This document shows positions 4,411 through 41,729 of a DNA stretch of 64,000 nt, one piece after another (the stretch's first letter is position 1; each line of letters starts with the position of its first letter). Under the pieces are notes generated by a model that was not told the DNA's origin, ran no database searches, and saw only the letters and a program-made list of their open reading frames with translations. Source of the DNA: Escherichia coli (GTDB taxonomy: Bacteria > Pseudomonadota > Gammaproteobacteria > Enterobacterales > Enterobacteriaceae); assembly GCF_030384885.1 (NCBI RefSeq), contig NZ_CP128613.1, one strand, 5' to 3'. A program made the position numbers and the translations under genes.

Positions 4411-4430
4411 GCCGTGACAGCTTTATGACA
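4411..4430 (-). promoter_or_regulatory. Pho box (PhoB binding site) of the phoA promoter
   Basis: Minus strand reads CTGTCATAAAGCTGTCACGG, two direct CTGTCA repeats, about 60 bp upstream of the phoA start. Confidence 0.7.
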
Positions 4431-4451
4431 GCTGTTGAAAAGATTACCTTT

Positions 4452-7128: not shown

Positions 7129-8223
7129 TTACTGTTTCATACAACGCGCCCGCCGTTCGTCTACGCGCTTCGCAAACCAGGCCGTAGTCAGATTGCGGGT
7201 AATTTTCGGGCTTTCCAGTTGGATGCCGGGCAACATTTCGCGGGGTAGTGATCTACCCGTTTTTGCTTCGGCAAGTTGATAAACTTCCTTGTACAGCGCC
7301 GTCTCCTCAAAAGAGAAGCTGTCCCCTTTCTCTAACTGACGGCGAATTTCGCTGTCGCTCATCCCCAGTTTGCTTGCCAGTTTGCGCGTTGCCAGCTCTG
7401 TTTTCCCTGGTTCTTTACTGTCGTAACGAATTAAATCACCGTCCAGCGCCAGCTTTATGCCAGTGGCCTTACTGACCGCGTTCTGAAAAGCGGCATTACG
7501 GCTGGCGTACCAGCCAGCGTTAAAATCGGCAAAACGGTATATCGGCGCGCTATAACTGGCGGGATAATTCAGTAAATGGTAAGTACCGAACCACAATCCG
7601 CCGCGGCGACTGAAGACTTCCTGACGGACTGTACCGTCCATTTTCCACGGATACCCTTTGGTATGCTGTTCGGCAAACGCAATGCTGACCTGCATCGGTC
7701 CACCGGTACGTACCGGATTAAGCGAACCAAACAGCGTCTGCCCCATTGGCACCATGCTGATCAAATCGTCAAAAATCGCGCTTAATTGCTTTTCTGTACG
7801 CACAGAATCTAACCGCTCACTATAACTTTTGCCGTTTGGCGATTTGATTTTTAGCGCGGTATGAACCAGAAAAGCAGGGATGTGCATCCGTTCGGCACGA
7901 CGGTCAATCTCTTGCCATGCTATCTTGCTTAAGCCCGGAACGGGCGGATCTGCCTGATAATTTGACTCCTGCTGCGCCACCGCCAGCACCGAGCAGACAT
8001 TTTCCAGCGTCGGTGCCAGCCCCTGACTTTCAAACGTGGTGGCAAGATCTTTCGCCCAGGCATCGCGGTCTTTCACGCTCGCGGGCATCTTCTGCCGCAC
8101 GACGCTCGCCACATCTATCGCTTTTTCGCCCTTTTTCAACGGTTGCGGAGCCTGACTACTACACCCTGCTAAAACCAGAACCGCCAACAACGAAAGCGAA
8201 GATAGATGATTGACGCGCGACAT
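7129..8223 (-). CDS. yaiW: Lipoprotein YaiW
   Basis: 364 aa ORF; lipobox LAGCSS after signal peptide; 12 bp downstream of sbmA, implying an sbmA-yaiW operon. Confidence 0.9.
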   Translation of the reverse strand: MSRVNHLSSLSLLAVLVLAGCSSQAPQPLKKGEKAIDVASVVRQKMPASVKDRDAWAKDLATTFESQGLAPTLENVCSVLAVAQQESNYQADPPVPGLSKIAWQEIDRRAERMHIPAFLVHTALKIKSPNGKSYSERLDSVRTEKQLSAIFDDLISMVPMGQTLFGSLNPVRTGGPMQVSIAFAEQHTKGYPWKMDGTVRQEVFSRRGGLWFGTYHLLNYPASYSAPIYRFADFNAGWYASRNAAFQNAVSKATGIKLALDGDLIRYDSKEPGKTELATRKLASKLGMSDSEIRRQLEKGDSFSFEETALYKEVYQLAEAKTGRSLPREMLPGIQLESPKITRNLTTAWFAKRVDERRARCMKQ

Positions 8224-8235
8224 TACTTCTCCTTT

Positions 8236-9456
8236 TTAACTCAAGGTATGGGTTACTTCCTGAATTTTGTCACCATCCAGCTCATGTTCAAAGCTGCGCA
8301 GACGTTTGTAGATAGACATCAACTCAACCAGCGTGGTCCATGAGTTAATCAGGTACTGAAAAGCACCGCGAACCTGACCAAAAACGTTGGTAATCTGCGT
8401 CATCAGGCCGAGCGTAATCGTACCGGCAACAATCGACGGAAACAGCAAGAACAAACCGAAAACGTTATCGACCTGCAAATAGAGAATGCGGGCGATGTTG
8501 AAATACATATAGTGAAAATAGAGGCGGAAATAGTTTTTCCGCACGGCGCTAAACAGCTCGCGTACCGTAGGCGGCGTCGCGCGCGATGCATCGTCTTCAC
8601 CATAAACCAACTCTTTACGGTAGGCAGCCTCTACACGCTGATTTTTAAACTCCAGTCCCGGCAGTTTGATCCCTACCACTGCCAGCAATCCGGTCCCCAT
8701 CAACGACCATACGATAGCAGCAATCACCAGACCATACGGAATATGCCCGACAATCGGCAGCTCCGGCACATGCGCAGAGAGCGTTACCAGTACCGGCAGG
8801 AAGGCGATCAACGTCATGATAGCGTTGATAAAACTGACGCCCATATTCTCAAGCGTTGAAGCAAAACGCATGGTGTCTTCCTGCACACGCTGGGCGGCAC
8901 CTTCGATATGACGCAGTTGTTGCCAGTTCGCCATGTAATATTCGTTCATCGCCGTACGCCAGCGGAACACGTAGTGACTGACAAAGAAGTTGTTCAGCAC
9001 ACTGATCACCACCGCGATCAGCGCAATCCCCAGAAAGACGCCCACTTCGCGGTAAAATTGTTCGATAGTGACTTTATGCGGCGAACTTAGCGCAGTTTGA
9101 ATCAGATCATAAAACGGCGCATACCAGGCGTTGACGGCAACTCCAACTTCCACCAAAAACCAGGTGACGAAGATAATCAACGCAGTACCGAGTATTGACC
9201 AGTATTGCCAACGATGCGGGCTATAAATAAACCAGAACAGTGCAAAAAGCCCTACGCAAACAATGTAGTAAGCGTAAAAAATCAGGAAATCTAACGACCA
9301 GAAACGCGCGGCGCTAATTGGGATCTGCCCGGAAGCTCCGGTGATGCGCGCCACCCAATCCCCCCCACCGGCTTGCCAGAAGATAACGGCAATCAATGCC
9401 CAAACAAAGGCCGAGAGAAAAAACGTTCCCGGCTTTGGGAAAAAAGACTTAAACAT
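8236..9456 (-). CDS. sbmA: Peptide antibiotic/microcin transporter SbmA
   Basis: ORF 8236-9462; start [24 protein letters not shown]; polytopic membrane protein, about 406 aa. Confidence 0.95.
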
Positions 9457-9807
9457 ATGCACTCCTGCTAACTTCTTATCGTTTTAACAACTGCTGTGTA
9501 TTAACCGCATGACCGCTACAAAGAATCAGCCAAATGAAACTGCCCATTGTGACCCATAGCAAGGCGCATAGTTCGCCAGCCTGACCATAAGAATTGTTTC
9601 GACGGATTTCACAAACCAAAGATTATTTACATTAGCGGATTAACACGCGCAGGATCACAAATGCAGGCATTGGTGAGCAGGAAAAAGATCGTGTTTACGC
9701 GCCGTTACGTTTTTAACACTATTATTGCACTAATTCGCCCTTTGCAATCCATCAATGAGTAGTATAAATACGCTCAGTTACCTTCATTCAATCTATGGAC
9801 ACCACCG

Positions 9808-10965
9808 TTGAAACGTAGTCTGCTTTTTTCTGCCGTGCTTTGTGCGGCGTTATTGACCCCCGTCCATGCGGCGCAGCCGATCACTGAACCGGAGTTCGCC
9901 TCTGATATTGTCGATCGTTATGCCGATCATATTTTTTATGGCAGTGGTGCCACGGGGATGGCGCTGGTTGTTATCGACGGTAACCAGCGCGTCTTTCGCA
10001 GTTATGGCGAAACGCGCCCGGGTAATAACGTTCGCCCGCAGCTGGATTCGGTCGTGCGTATTGCTTCGCTCACCAAGCTAATGACCAGTGAGTTGCTGGT
10101 GAAATTGCTCGACCAGGGGACCGTGAAGTTAAACGATCCGCTAAGTAAATATGCTCCACCAGGCGCACGCGTGCCGACTTACAATGGCACGCCTATTACC
10201 CTGGTGAATCTGGCAACCCATACCAGTGCCCTGCCCCGTGAACAGCCGGGAGGTGCGGCACATCGCCCAGTGTTTGTCTGGCCAACGCGCGAGCAACGCT
10301 GGAAATACCTTTCTACGGCGAAGCTGAAAGCCGCGCCAGGCAGTCAGGCGGCATACTCTAACCTTGCGTTCGACCTGCTGGCAGATGCACTGGCGAATGC
10401 TTCTGGCAAGCCTTATACCCAGTTGTTTGAAGAGCAGATTACCCGTCCGTTGGGGATGAAAGACACGACCTATACTCCATCGCCGGACCAGTGCCGCCGT
10501 TTAATGGTTGCAGAGCGCGGTGCCAGTCCATGCAATAACACGCTGGCGGCAATTGGCAGCGGCGGAGTCTATTCCACGCCTGGCGATATGATGCGCTGGA
10601 TGCAGCAGTATTTGTCATCTGATTTTTATCAGCGCAGTAACCAGGCAGATCGCATGCAGACGTTGATTTATCAGCGAGCGCAGTTTACAAAAGTGATTGG
10701 CATGGATGTCCCCGGCAAAGCGGATGCGCTTGGTTTAGGCTGGGTATATATGGCCCCGAAAGAGGGTCGTCCAGGGATTATTCAGAAGACAGGTGGTGGT
10801 GGCGGTTTCATTACCTATATGGCGATGATCCCGCAGAAGAATATTGGCGCATTTGTGGTGGTCACTCGTTCGCCATTGACGCGCTTTAAAAATATGAGCG
10901 ATGGCATCAATGACCTGGTGACCGAACTGAGCGGGAATAAACCGTTGGTCATCCCCGCGTCCTGA
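9808..10965 (+). CDS. ampH: Penicillin-binding protein AmpH (class C beta-lactamase fold)
   Basis: 385 aa; signal peptide; SxxK motif (ASLTK); the codon at 9808 is TTG. Confidence 0.9.
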   Translation: MKRSLLFSAVLCAALLTPVHAAQPITEPEFASDIVDRYADHIFYGSGATGMALVVIDGNQRVFRSYGETRPGNNVRPQLDSVVRIASLTKLMTSELLVKLLDQGTVKLNDPLSKYAPPGARVPTYNGTPITLVNLATHTSALPREQPGGAAHRPVFVWPTREQRWKYLSTAKLKAAPGSQAAYSNLAFDLLADALANASGKPYTQLFEEQITRPLGMKDTTYTPSPDQCRRLMVAERGASPCNNTLAAIGSGGVYSTPGDMMRWMQQYLSSDFYQRSNQADRMQTLIYQRAQFTKVIGMDVPGKADALGLGWVYMAPKEGRPGIIQKTGGGGGFITYMAMIPQKNIGAFVVVTRSPLTRFKNMSDGINDLVTELSGNKPLVIPAS

Positions 10966-11652
<687 letters not shown>

Positions 11653-11653
11653 T

Positions 11654-14623
<2,970 letters not shown>

Positions 14624-16162: not shown

Positions 16163-17014
16163 TTACCCCGCCCGATAAAACGGAATATCCCCAAGAATCG
16201 TCGCCCGATGCATAATCCGCCGCTGTGGCAGGTAATCCGCATTGGCATAGTGCTGAGTCACTCGGTTATCCCAAATCGCAATATCATTCGGTTGCCAGCG
16301 CCAGCGCACCTGAAACTCCGGTTTAGTGATATGGGCAAACAAAAAACCTAACAAGGCTTCGCTCTCTTTCTCGCTGACGTCAACAATTCGCGTAGTAAAG
16401 CCTTCGTTCACAAACAGCGCCTGTTTACCGGTCACCGGATGCGTTCGCACAACCGGATGGAGTAACGGTGGATTTTTCGCGACCGCCTCGTGCCAGCGTT
16501 GATGCTCCTCCTCGGTTTTGCGGTACTTGTATTCCGGGAACGATTTACGGAAATCATGCTCCGCACATAACCCGCTCAATAGTTGACGGAAGGGAACTGA
16601 GAGCGCCTCATAGGCCGCAATACCGCTGCTCCATAGCGTATCGCCGCCGGTCGAGGGTAACTCTTTCGCCGCCAGAATCGCCCCTGCGGGTGGCGTTTCA
16701 ATAAATGTCACATCGGTGTGCCAGTTATCGTTATCCGGCGGATTATCGTTATGAGTATCCAGTACGATAATCTCGTCAACCCCTTCGGCATGAGGGTAAA
16801 CAGGATGAATATGCAGTTCGCCAAAACGTTGGGCCAGCGCGCGTTGCTGCTGCGGCGTAATGGCCTGTTCACGCAGAAACACCACCTGATGACGCAGTAC
16901 CGCATGGTAAAGCTGTTCAAACTGGTTATCACTTAACGGGCGCGTCAGGTCGACACCCGTAATTTGTGCGCCAATATACGGCCCCAGCGGGGTAATGCTC
17001 AGACGTTCACTCAT
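16163..17014 (-). CDS. tauD: Taurine dioxygenase (alpha-ketoglutarate dependent)
   Basis: 283 aa; overlaps the tauC stop by 4 bp. Confidence 0.95.
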
Positions 17015-17838
17015 TGTACTTCTCCATGCCAGGGCGTCAGGCGGCGCTGTAACGCGCGCAGACCCAGTTCTAAAAGAAAGGCGATACTCGCAATCACCGC
17101 GATCCCCGCCAGCACCACGTCAGTCGCGAGAAATTCACCCGCTGACTGGACCATAAAACCCAAACCGCGCGTCGCGGCAATCAACTCCGCCGCCACCAGG
17201 GTAGACCAGCCCACACCCAGACCAATGCGTAATCCGGTGAGAATTTCCGGCAGCGCACCGGGCAAAATAACAAACCACAGTACCTGTGTGCGGCTGGCCC
17301 CCAGCGACTGAGCGGCACGAATGCGAACCTGCTGCGCGCTTTTCACCCCCGCCAGCGCCGACATCGCCACAGGTGCAAAAATCGCTAAATAGATCAGTAA
17401 GATCTTCGAGGTTTCACCAATACCAAACCAGATCACCATCAGCGGCAAATACGCCAGCGGCGGCACCGGGCGATACAATTCAATTATCGGATCCAGAATG
17501 CCGCGCACCGTCGGGCTTAGTCCCATGGCGATCCCAACCGGAATGCCGATCAACACCGCCGCAAGTAGCGCCAGCACAATGCGCGTCAGGCTGGCTGCCA
17601 GATGTTGCCACAGGGTGGCGTCCATAAATCCTTGAGGTCCGGCAATAGTGAGCAGTTTTGCCAGTACCTGTTGCGGCGGCGGCAGAAACAGCGGGCTAAT
17701 CAGTTGCAGGGCCGCCACCGCCCACCATACAGTGAGTAAAACCGCTAACGTGCCAATGCTTAAGGTCACCTGACGCGAGAGCGGCCAGCGCCATTTCAGC
17801 CGATGCGAATGCAGTTTTTCATTAATGAGCACACTCAT
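17011..17838 (-). CDS. tauC: Taurine ABC transporter permease
   Basis: 275 aa polytopic protein; overlaps the tauB stop. Confidence 0.95.
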
Positions 17839-18602
17839 GAGAACGCCTCCCGTTGCTCAAATACGCGGCTTAAAACATATTCGCGCATGGCGATGAATTG
17901 TGGATCGGACTTGATGCTGCGGCTCGGTTCCCCGGCAACAAAGCGGCGGGCGAAGTTGAGCGGCAGCCGTTCCAACACACGGCCAGGGCCGGGTGAAAGC
18001 AGTACCAGCTCAGTCGCCATAAACACCGCTTCTTCTATATCGTGGGTAATCAACAGCACCTGCTTGCCCGTCTCCTGCCAGAGTTTCAGCAGCAGGGTTT
18101 GCATCTGGTCGCGGGTGAAGGCGTCCAGCGCGCCAAACGCTTCGTCGAGTAATAACAGCTGGGGATTTGCCGCCAGCGCGCGGGCAATCCCTACCCGCTG
18201 ACGTTGACCGCCGGAAAGCTGCCAGATATAGCGTTTTTCTGCGCCTTCTAGCCCCACTTTTTTCAGCATCTGGTGCGCGATTTCCAGGCGCTGTACTTTC
18301 TCTACACCTGCCAGTTGCAGGCCGAATGCCACGTTGTCTACCACATTACGCCACGGCAACAGCCCTTCATTCTGAAAAACCACGCCCCGCTCTGCGCCCG
18401 ATCCCTCAATGCACTTACCCGCCAGTTGAATGCTGCCATGCTGATAAGGCACAAAACCGGCAATCAGATTCAGCAAGGTGGTTTTGCCGCAGCCAGACGG
18501 TCCCAGAACCACCAGAAGCTCGCCGCTTTCCAGCGTCAGGTTGATATCTTCCAACGCCGGTTTGCCGCCATAATCGGCGTAAAGATGAGAGATTTGCAGC
18601 AT
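17835..18602 (-). CDS. tauB: Taurine ABC transporter ATP-binding protein
   Basis: 255 aa; Walker [10 protein letters not shown]; signature LSGGQRQR. Confidence 0.95.
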
Positions 18603-18614
18603 CTGCGCCTCCTT

Positions 18615-19577
18615 TTATTGCACGAAGCGCGAGGTCACGTACTGGCTGTAATCATTCGCCACGGCAGGGACTTTGCCCTGATCTTTCAAAAACTGCGCGG
18701 TATCGATGATCGCTTTATTCACCGGTCCGGTCAGTTCTGCCGTTTGTTGCTGCGGCGTCAGATAGGTATTCCCCTTCACCAGCCCCGGAACGTCACCTTC
18801 CGGCACGCCGCTTAAACGCGCCAGCTTGCTGATGTTTTCCGGCTGTTTCAGCCACGCGTCTGGGTTAGCAATGTACGGTTGCTGAGCATCGATGGCGCTT
18901 TTAGCGAACGCTTTCACGACTTCAGGATGTTTCTCGGCAAAATCTTTGCGCACTACCCAGACGTCCAGTGTCGGCGCGCCCCACTGCCCGACCTGTTCAG
19001 AATCGGTCAGCACCTTGCCATCTTTTTCCAGGGCGTTAACCGCCGGTGCCCAGACATAAGCACCATCAATGTCTTCCCGCTGCCAGGCGGCGATAATCGC
19101 AGGCGGCTGCAGGTTCACAATCTCCACTTGCCCGGGTTTAATGCCCCAGTGTTTCAGCGCCGCCAGCAAGCTGTAATGCGTGGTGGAGATAAACGGTACG
19201 GCAATGCGTTTGCCAATGAGATCTTCGGGTTTGCTGATGGTTTTCTTCACCACCAGCGCTTCGGAGTTACCCAGTTTTGACGCCAGCAAGAAGACCTCAA
19301 TCGGCACCTGTTGGCTGGCTGCAACCGCTAATGGGCTGGAACCGAGGTTGCCGATTTGCACATCGCCAGAAGCCAGTGCCCGCACGATGCTGGCCCCGCT
19401 GTCAAACTTACGCCAGTCCACGGTCGCCCCGCTCTCTTTAGCAAAGGTGTTATCAGCCTGAGCCACTTTCGCCGGTTCAGCGGAGGTTTGATAGGCCACA
19501 GTGACGTTCACCGCCTGTGCCTGAAAAGCGATGAATGCCAGTGCGGCAAGAAGTGTGTTACGCGATGAAATTGCCAT
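18615..19577 (-). CDS. tauA: Taurine ABC transporter periplasmic binding protein
   Basis: 320 aa with signal peptide; first gene of tauABCD. Confidence 0.95.
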   Translation of the reverse strand: MAISSRNTLLAALAFIAFQAQAVNVTVAYQTSAEPAKVAQADNTFAKESGATVDWRKFDSGASIVRALASGDVQIGNLGSSPLAVAASQQVPIEVFLLASKLGNSEALVVKKTISKPEDLIGKRIAVPFISTTHYSLLAALKHWGIKPGQVEIVNLQPPAIIAAWQREDIDGAYVWAPAVNALEKDGKVLTDSEQVGQWGAPTLDVWVVRKDFAEKHPEVVKAFAKSAIDAQQPYIANPDAWLKQPENISKLARLSGVPEGDVPGLVKGNTYLTPQQQTAELTGPVNKAIIDTAQFLKDQGKVPAVANDYSQYVTSRFVQ

Positions 19578-19879
19578 GATTGTCTGCTCCCCTGTCTTGT
19601 TATGGGAGCAGTATTTCGTTGCTGGTCAGTTTGATAAAGGAATTAAAACGTCTTGTTAAGAACAAAGCGTTTTTAGAAAAAAACTGGCAATGGTTAGCGA
19701 GTTTACGCATTTTGCAGCTTGGGCGAATGTAGCATGCCGATTCACAAACCAGATCAGATGTTCGCTCTCCGGCAAATTATTGCCATTTTGTTACATCCAT
19801 TCCATATCTGTCGCTGGTTGATTGCCAGCGACGCGCCGTGATGCATGATAGGAGAATGAGATAATAAGAGAAGAAAAGT

Positions 19880-20509
19880 ATGATTAGGGTTGTGCTGGTG
19901 GATGACCATGTGGTGGTGCGCTCTGGCTTCGCACAATTACTCTCTCTGGAAGACGATCTGGAGGTCATTGGTCAGTACAGTTGTGCCGCGCAGGCATGGT
20001 CGGCATTAACTCATAATGACGTTAATGTTGCCGTCATTGATATCGCCATGCCGGACGAAAATGGCCTCAGTCTGCTTAAGCGTCTGCGTGCACAAAAACC
20101 GCAATTCCGCGCCATTATTCTTAGCATTTATGACACGCCAACCTTTGTACAAAGCGCTCTGGATGCTGGTGCCAGCGGCTATTTGACCAAACGCTGTGGG
20201 CCGGAAGAGTTAGTGCAGGCGGTGCGCTCGGTCGGGATGGGCGGGCATTATCTCTGCGCCGATGCAATTCGGGCTTTACGCGGCGGCGAGCAACCCGCCC
20301 AGGCGCTGGAAATTCTCACCCCACGAGAACGTGAAGTGTTTGATTTATTAGTCAAAGGCGACAGTGTAAAAGAGATCGCCTTTAAGCTCGAACTCAGCCA
20401 TAAAACGGTACATGTACATCGCGCCAACGTGCTGGGAAAACTGAACTGTCATAGCACCATTGAGCTGGTGCATTTTGCACTCAATCACCATCTGCTGGCG
20501 GGGCATTAA
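19880..20509 (+). CDS. NarL/FixJ-family response regulator, UhpA-like
   Basis: 209 aa; receiver domain (VVLVDDH, acceptor Asp in VIDIAMPD) plus LuxR-type HTH; close in architecture to UhpA. Confidence 0.85.
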   Translation: MIRVVLVDDHVVVRSGFAQLLSLEDDLEVIGQYSCAAQAWSALTHNDVNVAVIDIAMPDENGLSLLKRLRAQKPQFRAIILSIYDTPTFVQSALDAGASGYLTKRCGPEELVQAVRSVGMGGHYLCADAIRALRGGEQPAQALEILTPREREVFDLLVKGDSVKEIAFKLELSHKTVHVHRANVLGKLNCHSTIELVHFALNHHLLAGH

Positions 20510-22050
20510 TGTCGCGTAACCTTCGTCATTGGGTGATTTCGCTGTTTATTGTGCTGGCCTGGGGAAGCGGCTGGCTGATGTTGTGGACGCTCAGCTTTTA
20601 TCTGACCAATAACGGTCAACAGGCAGTGTTATTTCTGCCGCACGGAGTTTACCTCGCTCTTCTTATTTTGCTCTCTCGCCGTTACTGGCCTGCGTTGGTG
20701 CTCCCCCCTTTGCTGATGATGTTCTGGCTGCACAGCGAGCAACTGTTGAACGGCTATCTCATGCTGGCAACGCCGGTTATTAGCCTGCTTCCTGCCATCC
20801 TTGCACAAAACGTCTGGCACCGTTTTCCACTTTACTGGCAGCGTCTGACGTTGCTGCTAGCCTCAGTAACAGCAGCTTCATTGCTGAATACAGCCATGCT
20901 AACCCCTTTTATGTCAGGCCCAATAATGCTGCCCGGTCTGACCTCATTTACCGGCGGCGTATTGTTGACGCCGTTTGTCTATCTCATCTTTGAGTTTCTG
21001 CGCCAGCAGCATCGCTATCAGCTTCTGAGACTCGATACGCATAATCCCCCCTTGCGAACCTCTTTAATCATCTGGTGTAGCCTATTTTTTATTATTGGTA
21101 TCGGCACCCAGATGGTGTTGTCGCCTGAAATCGAACGCCTGCTGCTGATCGTGGTATTTCTACCCAATGTGGTCATGGCCTGGAAATTTGGCTGGCAAGG
21201 TGGCGTACTCTCGGGGCTTTTGGGCAGCATGATGATCACTATTGCCCGCCAGATTGGCGTGGGCTTTAGTAACCTGGTGGAACTGGAGATTTTTCTCGCA
21301 ACCCAGGCATTGCTGGGAATTGGCCTGGGCATTGCCATCAGTCGCCAGCAACATCTGGCGCTAAACCTGCATCATTACCGTCAGCGACTGGAGGCAGAAC
21401 TGGCAGCACGGCGGGCATTGGCTGAAAAGCTGATCCACACCGAGGAAGACACGCGTAAAAGCCTGGCTCGCGAGCTGCACGACGAAATCGGTCAGAACAT
21501 TACCGCCATTCAGATCCAGTCGCAACTGGTGACGCGGGCACGCGATCCGGCGCAAGTTCATTCCGCAGCTAGCCAAATCAACGAACTCGCCCGCCGCATT
21601 CATCTCTCCACCCGCCAGTTGCTGCGCCAGTTGCGGCCACCCGCGCTTGATGAACTGACATTCCGCGAAGCATTACTTCATCTGATTAATGAATTTGCCT
21701 TTAGTGAACGCGGCATTCATTGCCAGTTTACCTATCAACTAACCACCACGCCAGAAAACGAAACGGTTCGCTTTACACTGTATCGGTTATTGCAGGAGTT
21801 ACTCAATAACGTCTGTAAACACGCCGAAGCCAGCGAAGTGACGATTATTCTGCGCCAGCAGGGAGAGATATTGCACCTGGAGGTCAGCGACAACGGTATA
21901 GGAATCGCCAGCGGGAAAATGACCGGATTTGGCATTCAGGGGATGCGTGAACGCGTCAGTGCCCTGGGCGGCGACTTAACGCTCGAAAAACATAACGGTA
22001 CGCGAGTAATTGTTAACCTGCCCACATTTTTGCAACAAATCGCCGGATAA
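20509..22050 (+). CDS. Sensor histidine kinase, UhpB-like (polytopic N-terminus, HisKA_3, HATPase)
   Basis: 513 aa; about 8 N-terminal hydrophobic segments; H-box ELHDEIGQ; ATPase region; start overlaps the upstream stop (TAATG). Confidence 0.85.
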   Translation: MSRNLRHWVISLFIVLAWGSGWLMLWTLSFYLTNNGQQAVLFLPHGVYLALLILLSRRYWPALVLPPLLMMFWLHSEQLLNGYLMLATPVISLLPAILAQNVWHRFPLYWQRLTLLLASVTAASLLNTAMLTPFMSGPIMLPGLTSFTGGVLLTPFVYLIFEFLRQQHRYQLLRLDTHNPPLRTSLIIWCSLFFIIGIGTQMVLSPEIERLLLIVVFLPNVVMAWKFGWQGGVLSGLLGSMMITIARQIGVGFSNLVELEIFLATQALLGIGLGIAISRQQHLALNLHHYRQRLEAELAARRALAEKLIHTEEDTRKSLARELHDEIGQNITAIQIQSQLVTRARDPAQVHSAASQINELARRIHLSTRQLLRQLRPPALDELTFREALLHLINEFAFSERGIHCQFTYQLTTTPENETVRFTLYRLLQELLNNVCKHAEASEVTIILRQQGEILHLEVSDNGIGIASGKMTGFGIQGMRERVSALGGDLTLEKHNGTRVIVNLPTFLQQIAG

Positions 22051-22122
22051 CCAGGAAAAAGTCTTAGGCATCCCGGATTTTCTCTCATCCTCTTTCACTT
22101 TCATTTTCATATAGTCAGCAAC

Positions 22123-23439
22123 ATGGAGACGACCATGCACGCGCGTTCAGCGAGAGAGATTAATCAATGCTACCGGACATTACGTCCGCGATTGCTGATG
22201 TGCATGATTATTGGCTACGCCGCATTTTATCTGACGCGAAAAAGCGTGAATTACGTCCTTCCGGCGCTGCAAACCGACCTCGGACTGGATAAAGGCGACA
22301 TTGGCCTGCTGGGTTCGCTGTTTTATCTCAGCTACGGATTGTCGAAATTTACCGCCGGACTGTGGCATGACAGCCACGGACAACGCGGTTTTATGGGCAT
22401 CGGCTTGTTCGCCACTGGGCTATTGAACGTGGTGTTTGCCTTTGGCGAATCACTTACGCTTCTGCTTGTGGTCTGGACACTGAACGGATTTTTTCAAGGC
22501 TGGGGGTGGCCACCGTGTGCCCGCTTACTGACCCATTGGTACTCCCGTAATGAACGTGGTTTCTGGTGGGGCTGCTGGAATATGTCGATCAACATTGGCG
22601 GAGCGATTATTCCGCTGATTAGCGCCTTTGCCGCCCACTGGTGGGGCTGGCAGGCCGCGATGCTGACACCGGGGATTATCAGCATGGCATTAGGGATCTG
22701 GTTAACGCTACAGCTTAAAGGCACACCCCAGGAAGAGGGATTACCGACGGTGGGTCAGTGGCGTCACGATCCGCTGGAATTACGTCAGGAACAACAAAGT
22801 CCGCCGATGGGTCTGTGGCAAATGTTGCGCACCACAATGCTGCAAAATCCGATGATCTGGCTGCTGGGTGTCTCTTATGTACTGGTTTATGTGATCCGGA
22901 TTGCGTTAAACGACTGGGGCAATATCTGGCTGACGGAAAGCCACGGCGTCAACCTACTCAGCGCCAACGCCACGGTAATGCTGTTTGAAGTGGGCGGCTT
23001 ACTCGGCGCGTTATTTGCCGGATGGGGTTCGGATTTGCTGTTTAGCGGGCAGCGAGCCCCCATGATTTTGCTGTTTACCCTTGGGTTGATGGTTTCGGTC
23101 GCTGCACTCTGGTTGGCACCGGTTCATCACTATGCCCTTCTGGCTGTGTGCTTTTTTACTGTGGGCTTTTTTGTCTTTGGCCCGCAAATGCTGATTGGAC
23201 TTGCGGCAGTGGAATGTGGACACAAAGCTGCGGCGGGTTCAATCACCGGATTTCTCGGTCTGTTCGCCTATCTCGGTGCGGCGCTGGCAGGCTGGCCGTT
23301 GTCGCTGGTTATCGAACGCTACGGCTGGTCGGGAATGTTCAGTTTACTCTCGGTCGCCGCAGTACTTATGGGTTTACTGCTGATGCCGTTACTGATGGCG
23401 GGCATCACCACCACTCACGCTCGAAGGATAAAACAATGA
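22123..23439 (+). CDS. MFS organophosphate:phosphate-antiporter-family protein, UhpC-like sensor
   Basis: 438 aa; many matches to UhpC from memory (FYLTRKS, GVSKF, CARLLT.WYSR.ERG, NDWGN, FGPQMLIG). Alternative start at 22135 has a better SD. Confidence 0.8.
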   Translation: METTMHARSAREINQCYRTLRPRLLMCMIIGYAAFYLTRKSVNYVLPALQTDLGLDKGDIGLLGSLFYLSYGLSKFTAGLWHDSHGQRGFMGIGLFATGLLNVVFAFGESLTLLLVVWTLNGFFQGWGWPPCARLLTHWYSRNERGFWWGCWNMSINIGGAIIPLISAFAAHWWGWQAAMLTPGIISMALGIWLTLQLKGTPQEEGLPTVGQWRHDPLELRQEQQSPPMGLWQMLRTTMLQNPMIWLLGVSYVLVYVIRIALNDWGNIWLTESHGVNLLSANATVMLFEVGGLLGALFAGWGSDLLFSGQRAPMILLFTLGLMVSVAALWLAPVHHYALLAVCFFTVGFFVFGPQMLIGLAAVECGHKAAAGSITGFLGLFAYLGAALAGWPLSLVIERYGWSGMFSLLSVAAVLMGLLLMPLLMAGITTTHARRIKQ

Positions 23440-24467
23440 AAATGCCCCTTACCTCTACTCTGATTGCTTCTGCCGTTGCGCTGGCAACCTTAACGGGTGC
23501 CGCACAAGCGAAAGGTCGACTGGTGGTCTATTGCAGCGCCACTAATGAAATGTGTGAGACCGAAACCAAAGCGTTTGGCGAGAAATATGATGTGAAAACC
23601 TCGTTTATCCGCAACGGCTCCGGTAGCACCCTGGCAAAAGTCGATGCTGAAAAGAAAAACCCACAGGCTGACGTCTGGTACGGCGGCACCTTAGACCCGC
23701 AGTCGCAGGCCGGCGAGATGGGCCTGTTACAGGCATATAAATCGCCTAACCTTGAACAGATCATGGAAAAATTCCGCGATCCGGCAAAAGTGAAAGGAAA
23801 CCTTTCCTCCGCCGTTTATGTGGGGATCCTCGGGTTTGGCGTCAACACAGAGCGTCTGAAAGAGAAAAACCTGCCTGTGCCGAAGTGCTGGAAAGATCTC
23901 ACCAAACCTGAATATAAAGGCGAAATTCAGATTGCCGATCCACAAAGTTCCGGTACCGCCTACACCGCGCTGGCTACCTTTGCGCAGCTGTGGGGGGAAG
24001 ATCAGGCCTTTGATTATCTAAAACAACTGAACGCCAACGTCTCCCAGTACACCAAATCAGGCATAGCCCCGGCACGTAACGCCGCCCGTGGCGAAACGGC
24101 GATTGGTATTGGCTTCCTGCATGACTACTCGCTGGAAAAAGAACAGGGCGCGCCGCTGGAGTTGATTTCCCCGTGTGAAGGTACGGGCTACGAAATTGGC
24201 GGCGTCAGCATTCTGAAAGGCGCGCGCAACCTCGACAACGCCAAACTGTTTGTGGACTGGGTATTATCAAAAGAAGCTCAGGAACTGGCGTGGAAGAAAG
24301 GGAAGTCTTATCAGATCCTGACCAATACCACCGCCGAAACGTCGCCAAATTCGCTGAAGCTCGACGACCTGAAATTAATCAACTACGACATGGATAAATA
24401 CGGTTCAACTGATGTTCGTAAGGCATTAATTAATAAATGGGTCAGCGAAGTGAAGATGGGTAAATAA
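23436..24467 (+). CDS. afuA: ABC transporter periplasmic substrate-binding protein, AfuA/FbpA family
   Basis: Start MKMPLTSTLIASAVALATLTGAAQA at 23436; the ATG overlaps the stop of the MFS gene (ATGA). Upstream 5' extension of the ORF rejected. Confidence 0.75.
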   Translation: MKMPLTSTLIASAVALATLTGAAQAKGRLVVYCSATNEMCETETKAFGEKYDVKTSFIRNGSGSTLAKVDAEKKNPQADVWYGGTLDPQSQAGEMGLLQAYKSPNLEQIMEKFRDPAKVKGNLSSAVYVGILGFGVNTERLKEKNLPVPKCWKDLTKPEYKGEIQIADPQSSGTAYTALATFAQLWGEDQAFDYLKQLNANVSQYTKSGIAPARNAARGETAIGIGFLHDYSLEKEQGAPLELISPCEGTGYEIGGVSILKGARNLDNAKLFVDWVLSKEAQELAWKKGKSYQILTNTTAETSPNSLKLDDLKLINYDMDKYGSTDVRKALINKWVSEVKMGK

Positions 24468-24478
24468 ACCCGCATTGC

Positions 24479-26614
24479 GTGCACTTGCCGGGTGCAGCAC
24501 AGACGCCTGCCCCGGCCAACCATACCGGAACTGCTATGTCACAGACACTTGCACTCCATCCCGCGAAAAAGCGGGATGCGATTTTCCTTTGGGTTTTGCT
24601 GGGCTGGCTGGCATTTATCCTGTTGCCGAGCTGGAGTCTCGATTATGGTCTGCTGGAGTCCACGAGTGATGAGATCCTCGAGGCGTACAGCTGGTCGCAT
24701 TTTAATATCAGCTGGCTGTGGTATTTACTCCCGAGTTTGCTGCTGGTTCGCCCGTTTAATGAGGCCAAACGCGAGCAGCGTAGCCGTCATTATTTTGATG
24801 CAGGCTGGGCATTGCTTTGTATAGCGTTTATGGTCATCAGTGCCACCATCGTTGGCCGCGGTCTAGGCTACGCCGCCATCGTGCTGTTTATCGAATTAAG
24901 CGCGATAATGACGCTGGCCTTAACCCGCCTCGAATGGCTGGGTGGCGACCGCTTTGTGATCGGCTCGCTGATTGCGATTGTGGCGCTGATTGGCATTTTT
25001 ATCGTCTGGCCGAGCATCGCCATTTTTATCCCGATGTTCACCAACGACGCGGGAGGGTTCGCCCCACTGGCGTTTATGAATGTGCTCTCGCAGGCACATA
25101 TTGTTCAGGTGATCGTCAACTCCATCGTCTTATCGATAGCGGTGGGTATTGGCTGTACTTTCTTCGGTCTGGTGCTGGCGATATATACCACGCGCATCGC
25201 TAAACGCAGCGCAGTAATCGGCCGCATCTTTTCCATTCTGCCAATTGTCACGCCACCGTTTGTGGTCGGCTTAGGCGTTACGCTCATGATGGGGCGCTCC
25301 GGCTACATAACGGAATTTATGGTGGAGTGGTTTGGGCTGACCAACACCAACTGGCTGTATGGTTTTACCGGGATCTGGCTGGCACAGGTCCTGGCATTTA
25401 CGCCAATGGCTTTTATGATCCTCGATGGGGCCATTAAAACCATTCATCCCTCGCTGGAAGAAGCCTCCTACACCCTGCGCGCCAGCCGCTGGCAAACCTT
25501 TAACGGTGTGTTTGTGCCGTTGTTAAAGCCCGCGCTTGCCAATGCCTTTTTAATCGTCGTGGTACAGTCACTGGCTGACTTCAGTAACCCGCTGGTGCTT
25601 GGCGGCAACTTCGACGTACTGGCGACGCAAATTTACTTCTACATTACCGGCTCGCAGCTGGATTATCAGGCCGCCAGCACCCTTGGCGCTTTCCTGCTGC
25701 TGTTCTCGCTACTGGTGTTCTGCGTCCAGTATATGTGGATTGGTAAACGCTCTTACGTCACGGTTTCCGGAAAGTCCTACCGCGGCGATGTCCAGCCACT
25801 ACCGGTCACCCTGGTGTGGAGCGTGGTCGCCATACTTGCGATATGGATTGCCTTTAACGCCCTGCTCTATGGCAGCATTTTCTACGGCAGCTTCACCGTG
25901 AACTGGGGCGTAGACTACACCCTAACGCTGGATAACTTTATCAAGTTATTTGGTCAGGGGATGAGCGACGGCGCATGGCCTTCACTGTTAGATACCTTGC
26001 TCTACGCCGGGATTGCCGCACCCATTACCGCTATTTTTGGCCTGCTCATCGCCTGGGTGGTGGTGCGCCAACAATTCAAAGGCAAAAAGACCATCGAGTT
26101 CACCACCATGTTGTGCTTTGCCGTACCGGGTACAGTGGCGGGTGTCTCGTATATTCTTGCCTTTAATAGCGCCCCAGTCTATCTCACCGGAACGGCAGCA
26201 ATTGTGATTATCTCGATGGTGATGCGCAACGTTCCGGTGGGTATTCGCGCCGGGATTGCAGGTCTGGGGCAGATCGACAAATCGCTGGATGAAGCCTCAC
26301 TTAGCCTGCGTGCGGGTTCCCTGCGAACCATTACGCACATTTTACTGCCGTTGTTACGCCCAGCTATTCTCTCGGCCCTGATTTACAGCTTTGTGCGGGC
26401 TATCACGACGGTCAGCGCCATCGTCTTTCTCGTCACGCCGGACACACGCGTGGCAACCGCCTACATCCTTAACCGCGTAGAAGACGGCGAATATGGCGTA
26501 GCCATCGCCTACGGTTCGATTCTGATCGTGGTGATGCTGGCGATTATTTTCCTCTTTGACTGGCTGATCGGTGAAGCACGTATTTCCCGTTCTAAAGCCA
26601 AAAACCAGGCGTAA
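24479..26614 (+). CDS. afuB: ABC transporter permease with two fused transmembrane domains, AfuB/FbpB family
   Basis: 711 aa maximal ORF, highly hydrophobic with duplicated permease halves; true start may be the internal ATG at 24536. Confidence 0.8.
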
Positions 26615-26625
26615 TGGAGCGCACT

Positions 26626-27672
26626 ATGAGTCAGAAAAATTTTGTGGAACTGCGCAACGTCACTAAACGATTCGGCAGTAATACGGTTATCGACAATATC
26701 AATCTCACCATCCCACAAGGGCAAATGGTGACGCTGCTCGGTCCTTCCGGATGCGGCAAAACCACCATTCTGCGTCTGGTTGCCGGGCTGGAAAAACCGA
26801 GCGAAGGGCAAATTTTTATAGATGGCGAAGATGTCACGCATCGTTCCATTCAGCAACGCGATATCTGCATGGTGTTTCAGTCATACGCTCTGTTCCCACA
26901 TATGTCGCTGGGCGAAAACGTTGGCTATGGGTTGAAAATGCTTGGCGTGTCGCGTAGTGAAGTGAAGCAGCGGGTGAAAGATGCGCTAGCAATGGTGGAT
27001 CTGGAAGGATTCGAAGACCGCTATGTCGACCAGATTTCCGGTGGTCAGCAACAGCGTGTGGCTCTGGCCCGTGCGTTGATCCTTAAGCCTAAAGTGCTGC
27101 TGTTTGATGAGCCGTTAAGTAACCTCGATGCCAACCTGCGTCGCAGCATGCGCGATAAAATCCGCGAGCTGCAAAAGCAATTTAACATCACTTCGCTCTA
27201 TGTGACTCACGATCAAAGTGAAGCTTTCGCGGTGTCCGACACCGTGTTGGTGATGAATAAAGGTCACATCATGCAAATTGGCTCGCCGCAGGATCTCTAT
27301 CGTCAGCCCGCCTCCCGCTTTATGGCAAGTTTTATGGGCGACGCCAACCTGTTCCCGGCGAACTTTAGCGAAGAGTATGTCGATATCTACGGTTATCGCC
27401 TGCCGCGCGCGGCGCATTTCCCGGCGCAAGGTAGCGGCACCGTCGGCGTTCGCCCGGAAGCCATCACCTTAAGCAATCACGGCGAAGAGAGTCAGCGTTG
27501 TGTTATTCGCCATGTCGCCTACATGGGGCCGCAGTACGAAGTGACCGTAGAATGGCATGGTCAGGAGATTTTATTGCAAGTCAACGCCACCCGTTTACAG
27601 CCCGATATTGGTGAACACTATTACCTCGAAATCCATCCTTACGGGATGTTTGTTTTAGCGGATGCGGCATAA
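26626..27672 (+). CDS. afuC: ABC transporter ATP-binding protein, AfuC/FbpC family
   Basis: Start [11 protein letters not shown] with GGAG 7 nt upstream; Walker [10 protein letters not shown]; signature [13 protein letters not shown]; Walker B LLFDEP. Confidence 0.85.
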
Positions 27673-27754
27673 AAATAGCACATAAACGGTCCCAACCTGT
27701 CTTGAGAGACCGTTCACCTGTTTAGACGTCGGACAACAATTATTCTCCGGTGTT

Positions 27755-27807
27755 ATATACTATAGGGGGGTATGCATTGACATATGGCATACCCCCCTAT
27801 AGTATAT
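27755..27807. promoter_or_regulatory. FrmR operator: 21-bp inverted repeat with G6/C6 tracts
   Basis: ATATACTATAGGGGGGTATGC - 11 bp - GCATACCCCCCTATAGTATAT, ending 25 bp upstream of the frmR start. Confidence 0.6.
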
Positions 27808-27831
27808 TGCGTGCAGATGATGAGGTGCGAA

Positions 27832-28107
27832 ATGCCCAGTACTCCGGAAGAGAAGAAAAAGGTCCTTACTCGAGTTCGTCGTATTCGGGGGCAAATTGAT
27901 GCTCTGGAACGGTCGCTGGAGGGTGATGCCGAATGCCGTGCCATACTCCAACAGATCGCTGCCGTTCGGGGCGCGGCTAACGGGCTGATGGCAGAAGTGC
28001 TTGAAAGCCATATCCGGGAAACGTTTGACCGAAATGACTGCTACAGCCGCGAAGTCAGCCAATCCGTTGACGACACTATTGAACTGGTTCGTGCCTATCT
28101 TAAATAG
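27832..28107 (+). CDS. frmR: Formaldehyde-responsive repressor FrmR (RcnR/CsoR family)
   Basis: ORF 27784-28107; start [27 protein letters not shown] at 27832; 91 aa. Confidence 0.9.
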
Positions 28108-28111
28108 CTGA

Positions 28112-29251
<1,140 letters not shown>

Positions 29252-29343
29252 TTTCCCGCTGATTTCGCCCCGTCCAGTTCAGACGGGGTTCTCAATACCG
29301 TCCCCGGGCAGCCGTCCGGGGATTAACCATGAGATAATGACTG

Positions 29344-30177
29344 ATGGAACTCATTGAAAAACATGCCAGCTTTGGCGGCTGGCAAAATGTGTATCGGCAT
29401 TATTCCCAATCACTGAAATGTGAAATGAATGTCGGCGTCTATCTCCCACCAAAAGCCGGGAATGAAAAATTGCCGGTACTGTACTGGCTTTCGGGCCTGA
29501 CCTGTAACGAGCAGAATTTCATTACTAAATCGGGGATGCAACGTTACGCGGCTGAGCACAACATTATTGTTGTTGCGCCAGACACCAGTCCGCGAGGCAG
29601 TCATGTCGCAGATGCCGACCGTTACGATCTCGGGCAAGGTGCCGGGTTTTACCTGAACGCAACGCAAGCGCCGTGGAATGAACATTACAAAATGTATGAT
29701 TATATCCACAACGAGTTGCCGGATTTAGTGATGCAACATTTTCCGGCAACGACCAGAAAGTCTATCTCAGGTCATTCTATGGGCGGGCTGGGCGCGCTGG
29801 TGCTGGCGTTACGTAACCCAGATGAATATGTCAGCGTCTCGGCGTTTTCGCCCATTGTCTCCCCATCGCAAGTACCGTGGGGACAGCAAGCCTTTGCCGC
29901 ATATCTTGGTGAAAATAAAGATGCCTGGTTGGATTACGATCCGGTTAGCCTTATTTCACAAGGTCAACGCGTTGCGGAAATCATGGTTGATCAAGGATTG
30001 AGTGATGATTTTTACGCAGAACAGCTGCGGACTCCAAATCTTGAAAAGATCTGCCAGGAGATGAATATCAAAACGTTAATCCGTTATCACGAGGGTTATG
30101 ATCACAGCTATTATTTTGTCTCCAGTTTTATTGGCGAGCATATTGCCTACCACGCCAATAAACTGAATATGCGTTGA
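29344..30177 (+). CDS. frmB: S-formylglutathione hydrolase
   Basis: 277 aa; esterase motif GHSMGG. Confidence 0.95.
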   Translation: MELIEKHASFGGWQNVYRHYSQSLKCEMNVGVYLPPKAGNEKLPVLYWLSGLTCNEQNFITKSGMQRYAAEHNIIVVAPDTSPRGSHVADADRYDLGQGAGFYLNATQAPWNEHYKMYDYIHNELPDLVMQHFPATTRKSISGHSMGGLGALVLALRNPDEYVSVSAFSPIVSPSQVPWGQQAFAAYLGENKDAWLDYDPVSLISQGQRVAEIMVDQGLSDDFYAEQLRTPNLEKICQEMNIKTLIRYHEGYDHSYYFVSSFIGEHIAYHANKLNMR

Positions 30178-39967: not shown

Positions 39968-40756
39968 GTGGAGCAAATCATGAAAATTACTCAAATTCGT
40001 AATGCCACCCAAATTATCCAATACGCTGGCAAAACATTTCTTATTGACCCGTTACTCGCGCCTAAAGGAAGTTATCCGGGTTTTGCCGGAACGGCACGCG
40101 CAGAAATCCGCAATCCAACGGTAGAATTACCGTGTGATTTAACAACGTTACTCAACGTTGACGCCCTAATAGTGACCCATTTGCATGAAGATCACTGGGA
40201 CGAAACAGCCTCCCGCGTCGTCCCCAAAGATAAACAGATTTATGTGCAAAATGAGCAAGATGCTGAATCACTGCATAAACAAGGATTTACGCATCTTACC
40301 GTACTTGCCGACGAGACTAAATTTGGCGATATTACTCTGCATAAAACGACAGGGCAGCACGGCTCCGATCGCACCTATGCAGACCCGGCTATGGCGAAGC
40401 GTTTAGGCGCAGCCTGCGGCGTTGTTTTCCAGCACCCGACAGAGAAAACGCTCTATCTGGCTGGCGATACCCTCTGGCGTGATGACGTCGAGGCTACAAT
40501 GCTAACTTTCCAACCAGAAGTGGTGGTGTTGAATGCCGGATTTGCGCATGTTCTGGGGCATGGCGCGATAATTATGGGAGCTGAAGATATTCTCAAAACA
40601 CATTTTACCCTGCCAGAAGCGCAAATTGTCGCGACACATATGGAGGCCGTAAACCACTGTTTGCTGACGCGTGATGCGCTCAAGGAATACGCCAGAGATA
40701 ATCAAATTATCGAATTTGTGAACGTACCAGAAGATGGTGAAACGTTGACATTCTAA
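39968..40756 (+). CDS. Metallo-beta-lactamase-fold hydrolase, function unknown
   Basis: 262 aa; THLHEDHWDE metal-binding motif (HxHxDH-like); SD GGAG 8 nt upstream; not present in K-12 as I recall it. Confidence 0.75.
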   Translation: MEQIMKITQIRNATQIIQYAGKTFLIDPLLAPKGSYPGFAGTARAEIRNPTVELPCDLTTLLNVDALIVTHLHEDHWDETASRVVPKDKQIYVQNEQDAESLHKQGFTHLTVLADETKFGDITLHKTTGQHGSDRTYADPAMAKRLGAACGVVFQHPTEKTLYLAGDTLWRDDVEATMLTFQPEVVVLNAGFAHVLGHGAIIMGAEDILKTHFTLPEAQIVATHMEAVNHCLLTRDALKEYARDNQIIEFVNVPEDGETLTF

Positions 40757-40775
40757 TTCGGAGATAAAGAGTGTT

Positions 40776-41729
40776 ATGCGCCCGCTAACTGTTGCCATTA
40801 TCGCCGTTGCCGGTTTTAGTCCTTTTCACCTTTCCGTACCGTTTATCGTGTTTAGCGAAAAAATGGCGGAGAAAAAACGCTTTCATGTAATTATCTGCGC
40901 TGAAAAGCCGGGAAATGTGGACTCTGCCGATGGGTTTTCCGTAACCGCCACCCATGACTATACGGCAGTCATCCAGGCGGATATTGTGATAATTCCTTAC
41001 TGGGGAACAATTACACAAAAACCGCCACAAAAACTGCTGGAAGCCTTAACGACCGCACGAGATAACGGGGCACAGATTGTCGGGCTTTGCCTGGGCACGT
41101 TTGTGCTCGGCTATGCAGGTTTACTGAACAATAAGCGTGCTGCCACGCACTGGGAGTTCGAGCGTGAATTTCAGGCACGTTTTCCACAAACACATCTGGA
41201 TATTAACGCGTTGTATGTAGACGATGATGGCATTATTACCTCTGCCGGTACTGCCGCGGCGCTGGATTGCTGTTTGTATATTGTTCGGCAACATTTTGGC
41301 AGCGACTATGCTAACCATATTGCCCGACGGATGGTCGTACCGCCATATCGCACCGGCGGTCAGGCGCAGTTTATAGAGCAACCGGTGCCGAAAAATACCC
41401 ATGATGAACGCATTAACCTCCTGCTGGATTACCTGCGGCAAAACATTGCGCAACAGCATGATCTCGACTCGCTGGCTCAGCGAGTAATGATGAGTCGCCG
41501 CACACTAACCCGTCATTTTATGAAAGCGACCGGTTCGAGTATCGCCGAATGGCTCATCACTGAACGCTTACGCCGTAGCCAGGAACTGTTGGGATCCAGT
41601 CAGTTGCCCGTTGAGCGGATAGCGGCTGAGGTGGGTTTTCTCTCACCTGTGACCTGGCGTCAGCATTTTAAATCTCACTTCGGCGTCAGCCCCGCAGAAT
41701 GGCGCAAAACCTTTCGTGGTATGGCATGA
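40776..41729 (+). CDS. GlxA-type transcriptional regulator (DJ-1/PfpI-like domain plus AraC HTH)
   Basis: 317 aa; N-terminal class I amidotransferase-like fold, C-terminal AraC HTH; the 3' end contains the lacI promoter. Confidence 0.8.
   Translation: MRPLTVAIIAVAGFSPFHLSVPFIVFSEKMAEKKRFHVIICAEKPGNVDSADGFSVTATHDYTAVIQADIVIIPYWGTITQKPPQKLLEALTTARDNGAQIVGLCLGTFVLGYAGLLNNKRAATHWEFEREFQARFPQTHLDINALYVDDDGIITSAGTAAALDCCLYIVRQHFGSDYANHIARRMVVPPYRTGGQAQFIEQPVPKNTHDERINLLLDYLRQNIAQQHDLDSLAQRVMMSRRTLTRHFMKATGSSIAEWLITERLRRSQELLGSSQLPVERIAAEVGFLSPVTWRQHFKSHFGVSPAEWRKTFRGMA

Follow-up and report, generated by a model that had tools for sequence, protein, structure and literature searches.

Which signal does a six-gene sensing and transport block between tauA and frmR of Escherichia coli answer, and what does it import? 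The block lies in a 64,000-nucleotide stretch of contig NZ_CP128613.1 (hereafter the window) from strain 2013C-4282 (human stool, USA). It consists of genes for a response regulator, a histidine kinase, a major facilitator superfamily (MFS) protein and the three components AfuA, AfuB and AfuC of an ATP-binding cassette (ABC) transporter. It is probably a self-contained module whose six genes serve to sense and import sugar phosphates, like O-island 20 (OI-20) of enterohaemorrhagic E. coli (EHEC) O157:H7 and VCA0682-VCA0687 of Vibrio cholerae.

Judging from its sequence, the cassette is a divergent copy of the described OI-20 and is already known. A first-pass annotation of the window had overlooked that the block has a name and has been the subject of earlier work, as O-island 20, FusR/FusK (PMC11644481, PMC4810492), Z0461 and AfuABC (PMC4546632). 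Island, transporter and two-component system are all in the literature, and as a discovery the block is ordinary. Its value lies in the comparison: the widely cited fucose sensor of EHEC sits in a module whose other half imports sugar phosphates, Z0461 looks like a glucose-6-phosphate receptor, and the putative operator resembles UhpA sites.

Gene organization of the cassette

The six genes and their surroundings are arranged as follows (aa, amino acids).

18615-19577, - strand: tauA, flanking gene
19716..27739, strand not assigned: cassette-specific DNA, delimited by blastn against the empty-site E. coli strain S6 and K-12
19880..20509, + strand: response regulator of the NarL/FixJ type, 209 aa
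20509..22050, + strand: histidine kinase with MASE1, HisKA_3 and HATPase_c domains, 513 aa
22123..23439, + strand: UhpC-type MFS protein (conserved start probably the ATG at 22135)
23436..24467, + strand: AfuA, periplasmic sugar-phosphate binding protein, 343 aa, with signal peptide
24536..26614, + strand: AfuB, 692 aa, a fused double permease whose two halves are of the BPD_transp_1 type (Pfam of orthologues)
26626..27672, + strand: AfuC/FbpC ABC ATPase, 348 aa
27832-28107, + strand: frmR, flanking gene

All six open reading frames (ORFs) are on the + strand between tauA and frmR where the first-pass annotation had placed them, and the two gene overlaps that it reported are present, TAATG between the regulator and kinase genes and ATGA (4 nt) between the MFS gene and afuA. 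In blastn comparisons, homology with the empty-site strain S6 stops at 19715 and restarts at 27740, which leaves 19578-19715 and 27740-27831 as the intergenic stretches outside the cassette-specific DNA.

Three of the starts can be placed differently. The afuB gene starts at 24536 in RefSeq and at 24479 in the longest ORF, and afuC starts at 26626 in RefSeq with an alternative ATG at 26614. For the MFS gene, RefSeq gives 22123 in the window strain, and the ATG equivalent to 22135 in EDL933. The ATG at 22135 and its GGAG are kept across genera, and the ATG that precedes it, at 22123, occurs in E. coli only. Because the predicted -10 element (22110-22115) is too near 22123 and only 22135 is conserved, translation probably begins at 22135, with its Shine-Dalgarno sequence, and not at 22123 as had been assumed.

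The transporter as a sugar-phosphate importer

The sequence data support the assignment of the window AfuABC as a sugar-phosphate importer and not a ferric transporter. The operon layout of AfuABC importers, with a binding protein, a fused double permease and an ATPase, is present, and the binding protein and permease are nearest to the PhnS2/PhnU2 and Afu type. AfuA is ~80% identical to AfuA of Actinobacillus pleuropneumoniae (PDB 4R72-75; E = 3e-170) and matches the Vibrio homologue 8X1A with E = 2.5e-173. AfuABC is an ATP-driven importer of the 6-phosphates of glucose and fructose and of sedoheptulose-7-phosphate, with binding and transport demonstrated for the A. pleuropneumoniae and Citrobacter rodentium systems (PMC4546632). 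In that work, by Sit et al., the AfuA residues contacting glucose-6-phosphate are S37, T150, H205, D206 and E229 (PMC4546632). All five are kept in the window precursor, the phosphate-contacting Ser37 and Thr150 as S62 and T174 and the sugar-coordinating His205, Asp206 and Glu229 as H229, D230 and E253. The hexose-phosphate pattern (H-D ... E) is thus retained, whereas the paralogue that binds pyridoxal-5-phosphate (6WCE) has H-A ... A and lacks the Glu.

Database names suggest a ferric-iron FbpABC system instead. The ATPase gene is named fbpC in RefSeq, its product is called a ferric ABC transporter ATP-binding protein, and the AfuC/FbpC model PRK11432, which it matches with 698 bits (cut-off 496), bears the same name. 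In the FbpA family, tandem tyrosines serve as iron ligands. When ferric-binding HitA (6IVY) is aligned with AfuA, its NNYYWY segment falls on GFLHDY, so that the Tyr-Tyr pair is replaced by Leu228-His229. Ferric-binding proteins match AfuA at only ~1e-10 to 1e-12, against 1e-170 for the sugar-phosphate AfuA, and what was shown experimentally for AfuABC is sugar-phosphate binding and transport, not iron uptake (PMC4546632). A ferric transporter is accordingly exceedingly improbable. The sugar-phosphate interpretation of the first-pass annotation, which had offered conserved iron-coordinating residues as grounds for its refutation, withstands that comparison.

The sensor proteins

The first-pass annotation had recognized UhpA-, UhpB- and UhpC-like proteins and an AfuABC-like transporter, and the profile scores (194, 373, 589 and 698 bits) bear out these families. 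The MFS protein scores above the cut-off of 564 bits of the NCBIfam UhpC subfamily model. Identities to the K-12 proteins are 50% for the regulator (UhpA), 38% for the kinase (UhpB) and 53% for the MFS protein (UhpC). The phospho-acceptor Asp54 is present in the regulator, and the kinase contains the H-box ELHDEIGQ with His324.

The MFS protein belongs to the organophosphate:phosphate antiporter family and keeps the two essential arginines of that family. Its R39, K75 and R259 align with UhpT R46, K82 and R275, and the residues at the positions of UhpT D388 and K391 are of the UhpC type. The roles of the arginines, D388 and K391 are well established for UhpT. Directly downstream of the MFS gene lies afuABC and not uhpT, which does not indicate control of a uhpT gene. 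A second uhpC-like match elsewhere in the genome of the window strain is presumably the canonical uhpC.

Between the window and EDL933 alleles, the number of nonsynonymous substitutions per site (dN) is ~0.02 for the regulator and kinase and 0.0025-0.006 for the MFS protein, AfuA and AfuC. The kinase has 24 substitutions, 11 of them within the first 174 residues, in the membrane MASE1 part, and the regulator has 9. Truncation of the kinase in some O157:H7 and O55:H7 records was considered and rejected; the designation as a MASE1 domain-containing protein is only a difference in naming, and the complete gene is present.

Conservation across genera

A scan for AfuA with one genome per species yielded 349 relatives, and the best 80 of the 349 loci were examined. 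All 80 are from Enterobacterales, including Citrobacter, Klebsiella, Raoultella, Enterobacter, Serratia, Leclercia, Buttiauxella, Rahnella, Erwinia, Pantoea, Brenneria and Yersinia. The order regulator-kinase-MFS-AfuA-AfuB-AfuC on one strand is found in every one of these loci with enough sequence, at identities of 54-95% for the kinase and 84-98% for AfuA. A kinase-based search found the same layout in Photorhabdus and in an Aeromonas-labelled contig, and the six genes of the Vibrio locus adjoin napABC, which is the VCA0682-87 neighbourhood. No fucose genes were found beside the cassette in the best 80 Enterobacterales loci, in Vibrio or in the loci of the kinase search.

The junction between the MFS gene and afuA is tight or overlapping in most of the sampled Enterobacterales, and a conserved putative promoter lies upstream of the MFS gene. 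These features are consistent with the proposal of the first-pass annotation that the MFS sensor is co-operonic with the transporter.

An origin of the sensor from Enterococcus, suggested in a review (PMC4810492), was also considered; none of the 120 best kinase homologues (at least 55% identity) is from Enterococcus.

Regulatory DNA

Conserved noncoding elements were sought by alignment of the kinase-MFS spacer from 77 loci and of the region upstream of the regulator gene from 75 loci. The elements are listed below.

22050..22068, + strand: candidate operator ACCAGGAAAAAGTCTTAGG, a degenerate CYAGGAA-N3-TTCCTRG palindrome (cross-genus alignment)
22083..22115, + strand: conserved TCTCATCC box (22083-22090) and -10-like TATAGT (22110-22115) (cross-genus alignment)
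19790..19806, + strand: conserved direct repeat GTTACATCCATTCCATA upstream of the regulator gene (GTTACAT-N3-RTTMCAT; here GTTACAT-N3-ATTCCAT)
19822..19849, + strand: TTGCCA-16-CATGAT, a sigma-70-like promoter serving the regulator and kinase genes (promoter scan and cross-genus alignment)

The palindrome is perfect at the same position in Buttiauxella, Rahnella, Pantoea, Brenneria and Vibrio, the Vibrio copy at the same kinase/MFS junction reading CTAGGAA-ATA-TTCCTAG. Within the 64-kb window, CYAGGAANNNNTCYTRG has a single exact match, at the candidate operator. Even in loci where the kinase is just 54-57% identical, the -10 element is kept together with the palindrome and the TCTCATCC box, and GGAG followed by the ATG at 22135 is the fourth conserved element of the spacer. 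No -35 match was found in the promoter upstream of the MFS gene.

The K-12 uhpT promoter can be written TCCAGG-TTTTG-CCTGGA ... TCTCAGGCC ... 27 nt ... TACAAT. The spacing from TCTCA to TATAGT in the cassette is likewise 27 nt, and the half-site cores CCAGG/CCTGG are common to the cassette palindrome and the uhpT promoter. UhpA occupies two adjacent sites at the uhpT promoter (PMC4790336).

Upstream of the regulator gene, both hexamers of the promoter at 19822-19849 are conserved across genera. The direct repeat at 19790-19806 is a candidate regulator site, and its periodicity of ~10 bp suggests a winged-helix protein of the OmpR/PhoB type. In the literature, QseB/QseC and QseE/QseF repress fusKR.

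With as many as 3 mismatches allowed, no Pho box was found in the cassette; the sole match in the window, a near-perfect box CTGTCATAAAGCTGTCAC at 4414-4431 in the promoter upstream of phoA, served as a positive control. A scan of 19400-28200 with Rfam gave no family at the gathering score, the afuA-afuB spacer showed no significant RNA structure (z-score -0.74), and terminator-like sites were no commoner in the DNA analysed than in shuffled sequence.

Outside the cassette, the DNA immediately preceding frmR (27755-27807) contains a large perfect-looking inverted repeat, TATACTATAGGGGGGTATGC ... GCATACCCCCCTATAGTATA, with which the best sigma-70 match (27777-27805) overlaps. K-12 and the empty-site strain carry the repeat as well, and it is probably the known FrmR operator/promoter of frmRAB.

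Distribution and age within E. coli

The sensor genes are present in 519 of 5426 complete E. coli genomes. Alleles at least 99% identical to that of the window occur in 11 genomes, alleles at 95-99% in 59, and the O157-type allele (90-95%) in 449. The O157-type allele is also carried by O55:H7, O145, O111:H8, O169:H41 and O157:H16, and by isolates from chicken, pigeon, mink and baboon. Three alleles of the tauA-frmR site are found in E. coli: the cassette, the yaiS-yaiO block of K-12, and an empty allele (S6 and others) in which frmR comes directly after tauA, with REP-like sequence in between. The interval in K-12 MG1655 reads yaiS-ykiC-yaiP-yaiX::IS2-yaiO, in line with the content that the first-pass annotation had given; its view of the cassette as an accessory block likewise holds, given its absence from K-12 and its restricted occurrence.

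Between the window and EDL933, the number of synonymous substitutions per site (dS) is 0.19-0.30 for the six cassette genes, and 0.23, 0.24, 0.20 and 0.12 for the flanking tauA, tauB, frmA and hemB. Since the cassette has the same dS as its flanks, the block appears to be old in E. coli and not recently acquired. The dN/dS ratios of all six genes (0.01-0.08) indicate purifying selection in both lineages. The base composition has no anomaly that sets the cassette apart from its flanks, and there is therefore no compositional sign of recent transfer. On this evidence, long residence with loss or replacement elsewhere fits better than a recent gain specific to O157.

The flanking genes tauA, tauB, frmA and frmB (16163-19577 and 28142-30177) are only ~95-97% identical at the DNA level to those of K-12 and O157:H7, whereas K-12 and O157:H7 share 98.5-99% identity at tauA and frmA. 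This divergence (dS ~0.2) places the window strain, for this region at least, in a diverged lineage.

A second, dead afu remnant is found elsewhere in ~460 K-12-type genomes. It consists of an afuB fragment truncated by IS1 and an intact afuC/fbpC gene, and adjoins yagK, yagL, yagM and mmuPM (the CP4-6 region), as seen in strain H7, where it matches window positions 26266-27672 at 85% identity. Additionally, the mhpR-lacI interval of the window (39980-41729) contains genes for an MBL-fold metallo-hydrolase and a GlxA-family regulator. The pair is not known from K-12, where mhpR and lacI are adjacent; it may be another small accessory insert.

Proposed mechanism and alternative readings

In the proposed mechanism, the UhpC-type MFS protein would bind an extracellular organophosphate and signal to the MASE1 kinase, as UhpC does to UhpB, and the kinase would phosphorylate the regulator at Asp54. 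The regulator would then bind the palindrome at 22050-22068, centred ~63 bp upstream of the transcription start predicted from TATAGT, and would control one transcript comprising the MFS gene and afuABC. The MFS gene would lie inside the regulated transcript, so the sensor would be under its own control. The junction between the MFS gene and afuA is too tight to accommodate a separate promoter. Transcription of the regulator and kinase genes would start from the conserved promoter at 19822-19849, which is their own. UhpA at uhpT and the Vibrio system serve as analogies, and on this basis we favour activation by a hexose phosphate; we infer both the ligand and the sign of regulation (activation or repression). 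A connection between the regulator and the operon is supported by the reported regulation of z0461 by FusKR, although the sign there is the opposite, repression with fucose (PMC6199705). In bovine gut contents, fusR, fusK, z0461 and afuB have been reported to rise together.

We see an even chance that FusR/FusK and Z0461 are primarily a Uhp-like organophosphate sensor of AfuABC acting through the palindrome, in an Enterobacterales cassette that is old, passed on vertically and lost repeatedly, and that fucose sensing and repression of the enterocyte effacement locus (LEE) are secondary, indirect or lineage-specific. Several results weigh against such a sensor. The regulator and kinase score below the cut-offs of the NCBIfam UhpA (194 against 258 bits) and UhpB (373 against 408 bits) models and are therefore paralogues of UhpA and UhpB, not equivalogs. 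The right half of the palindrome is degenerate (TCTTAG) in E. coli and Citrobacter, its CCAGG-to-CCTGG spacing is N9 where that of uhpT is N5, and the start of transcription is predicted only, as is recognition of the palindrome by the regulator. The searchable literature yielded no paper in which sugar phosphates were tested on this sensor in E. coli or Citrobacter. Published work points to another ligand and the opposite sign: FusK is reported to autophosphorylate with L-fucose, repression by FusR is described for ler, the fuc genes and z0461 (PMC11644481, PMC4810492, PMC6199705), and a 2026 study again reports fucose effects that depend on fusKR (PMC12976359). The first-pass annotation, which had called the ligand an open question, was thus right only in part, as fucose has already been claimed in print.

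In the published FusKR model, free L-fucose is the direct signal for the kinase, the targets repressed by the regulator are ler, the fuc operon and z0461, Z0461 (termed a fucose transporter; PMC11644481, PMC4810492, PMC6199705) aids the import of fucose, and AfuABC is a mere neighbour. The model is described in reviews and follow-up studies (PMC11644481, PMC4810492, PMC6199705, PMC12976359), and the window proteins are 95-99% identical to those studied. It is at odds with the genomic context, in which the sensor triad is always joined to afuABC and never stands beside fucose genes (80 Enterobacterales loci and Vibrio), and in which the MFS gene overlaps afuA. Most of these organisms lack the LEE island, which also counts against the model. 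Moreover, Z0461 is a member of the organophosphate antiporter family that scores above the UhpC cut-off and retains the arginines that bind phosphate. Inspection by eye shows neither a CYAGGAA nor a TCYTRG half-site in the 29-nt ler site that has been published. The FusKR model seems doubtful to us, and the fucose and organophosphate views may both be true if control of the LEE is a secondary, lineage-specific output. That the sensor answers an organophosphate other than the ligands of AfuA, or phosphate limitation, and not hexose-6-phosphates, is suggested by the modest identity of the MFS protein to UhpC (just 53%) and of the kinase to UhpB (just 38%), and by the close AfuA paralogue that binds pyridoxal-5-phosphate (PDB 6WCE; PMC8427247), which implies that ligand shifts occur in the family. 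However, AfuA has the hexose-phosphate and not the pyridoxal-5-phosphate set of residues, the cassette has no Pho box although the phoA promoter was detected as a control, and a sensor tied to a hexose-phosphate importer across many genera most simply senses the substrates of that importer. We regard this reading as improbable.

The remaining interest of the locus is the comparative evidence set against the fucose-sensor model, together with a concrete candidate operator. If sugar phosphates are the primary signal, the model of gut sensing by EHEC, in which fucose would have to be weighed against phosphorylated sugars from lysed cells or mucus, needs revision, and so do anti-virulence strategies based on the release of fucose. 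Two statements in reviews can be corrected. The system is not confined to O157:H7, since it occurs in 519 of the 5426 genomes across many serotypes and hosts, and with a dS matching that of flanking core genes it does not look recently acquired.

Comparison with known systems

OI-20 of EDL933 comprises fusR (z0463), fusK (z0462), z0461 and afuABC, at the same tauA-frmR site and with the same order and overlaps as in the window. The window proteins are 95.7% (FusR), 95.3% (FusK), 99.1% (Z0461), 98.8% (AfuA), 97.1% (AfuB) and 99.4% (AfuC) identical to those of EDL933, and the sensor genes differ by ~6% at the DNA level (93.7% identity). Unlike the host of OI-20, strain 2013C-4282 is not labelled O157:H7 in its record. 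Sit et al. discussed the AfuABC of OI-20 and reported >83% protein identity in C. rodentium (PMC4546632).

VCA0682-VCA0687 of V. cholerae, with UhpABC homologues and a hexose-6-phosphate ABC importer, has the same six-gene order. The Vibrio importer is the more similar half, with identities to the window proteins of 75.5% (AfuA), 72% (AfuB) and 67% (AfuC), against 62% for the regulator, 42.5% for the kinase and just 51% for the MFS protein. The MFS gene and afuA are separated by 112 nt in Vibrio, in place of the 4-nt overlap in the window. Uptake in V. cholerae was reportedly found by Moisi (2013) to depend on the adjacent UhpABC homologues and on Pho control; the Vibrio operon is said to belong to the Pho regulon, whereas the window cassette has no Pho box match. 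VCA0686 is the permease of this characterised hexose-6-phosphate uptake system, as stated in a paper that cites that work (PMC4101255).

In A. pleuropneumoniae, AfuABC is encoded, as in the window, by afuA followed by genes for the fused permease and the ATPase. In Gallibacterium anatis, the sole Pasteurellaceae locus examined (8001-13118), afuABC has no sensor genes and is followed by a gene for a class B acid phosphatase, an arrangement that suggests a different coupling of sugar-phosphate uptake and use.

E. coli UhpABC has the same three-part design as the sensor of the window, in which an MFS sensor and a MASE1 kinase are combined with a NarL-type regulator. The UhpABC-UhpT system and the window also share the overlap of the regulator and kinase genes and what appears to be an activator-type promoter without a -35 element. 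They differ in output, which is an ABC importer in the window and the UhpT antiporter in the Uhp system, and in the position of the putative regulated promoter, which lies upstream of the sensor MFS gene in the window and downstream of it in Uhp.

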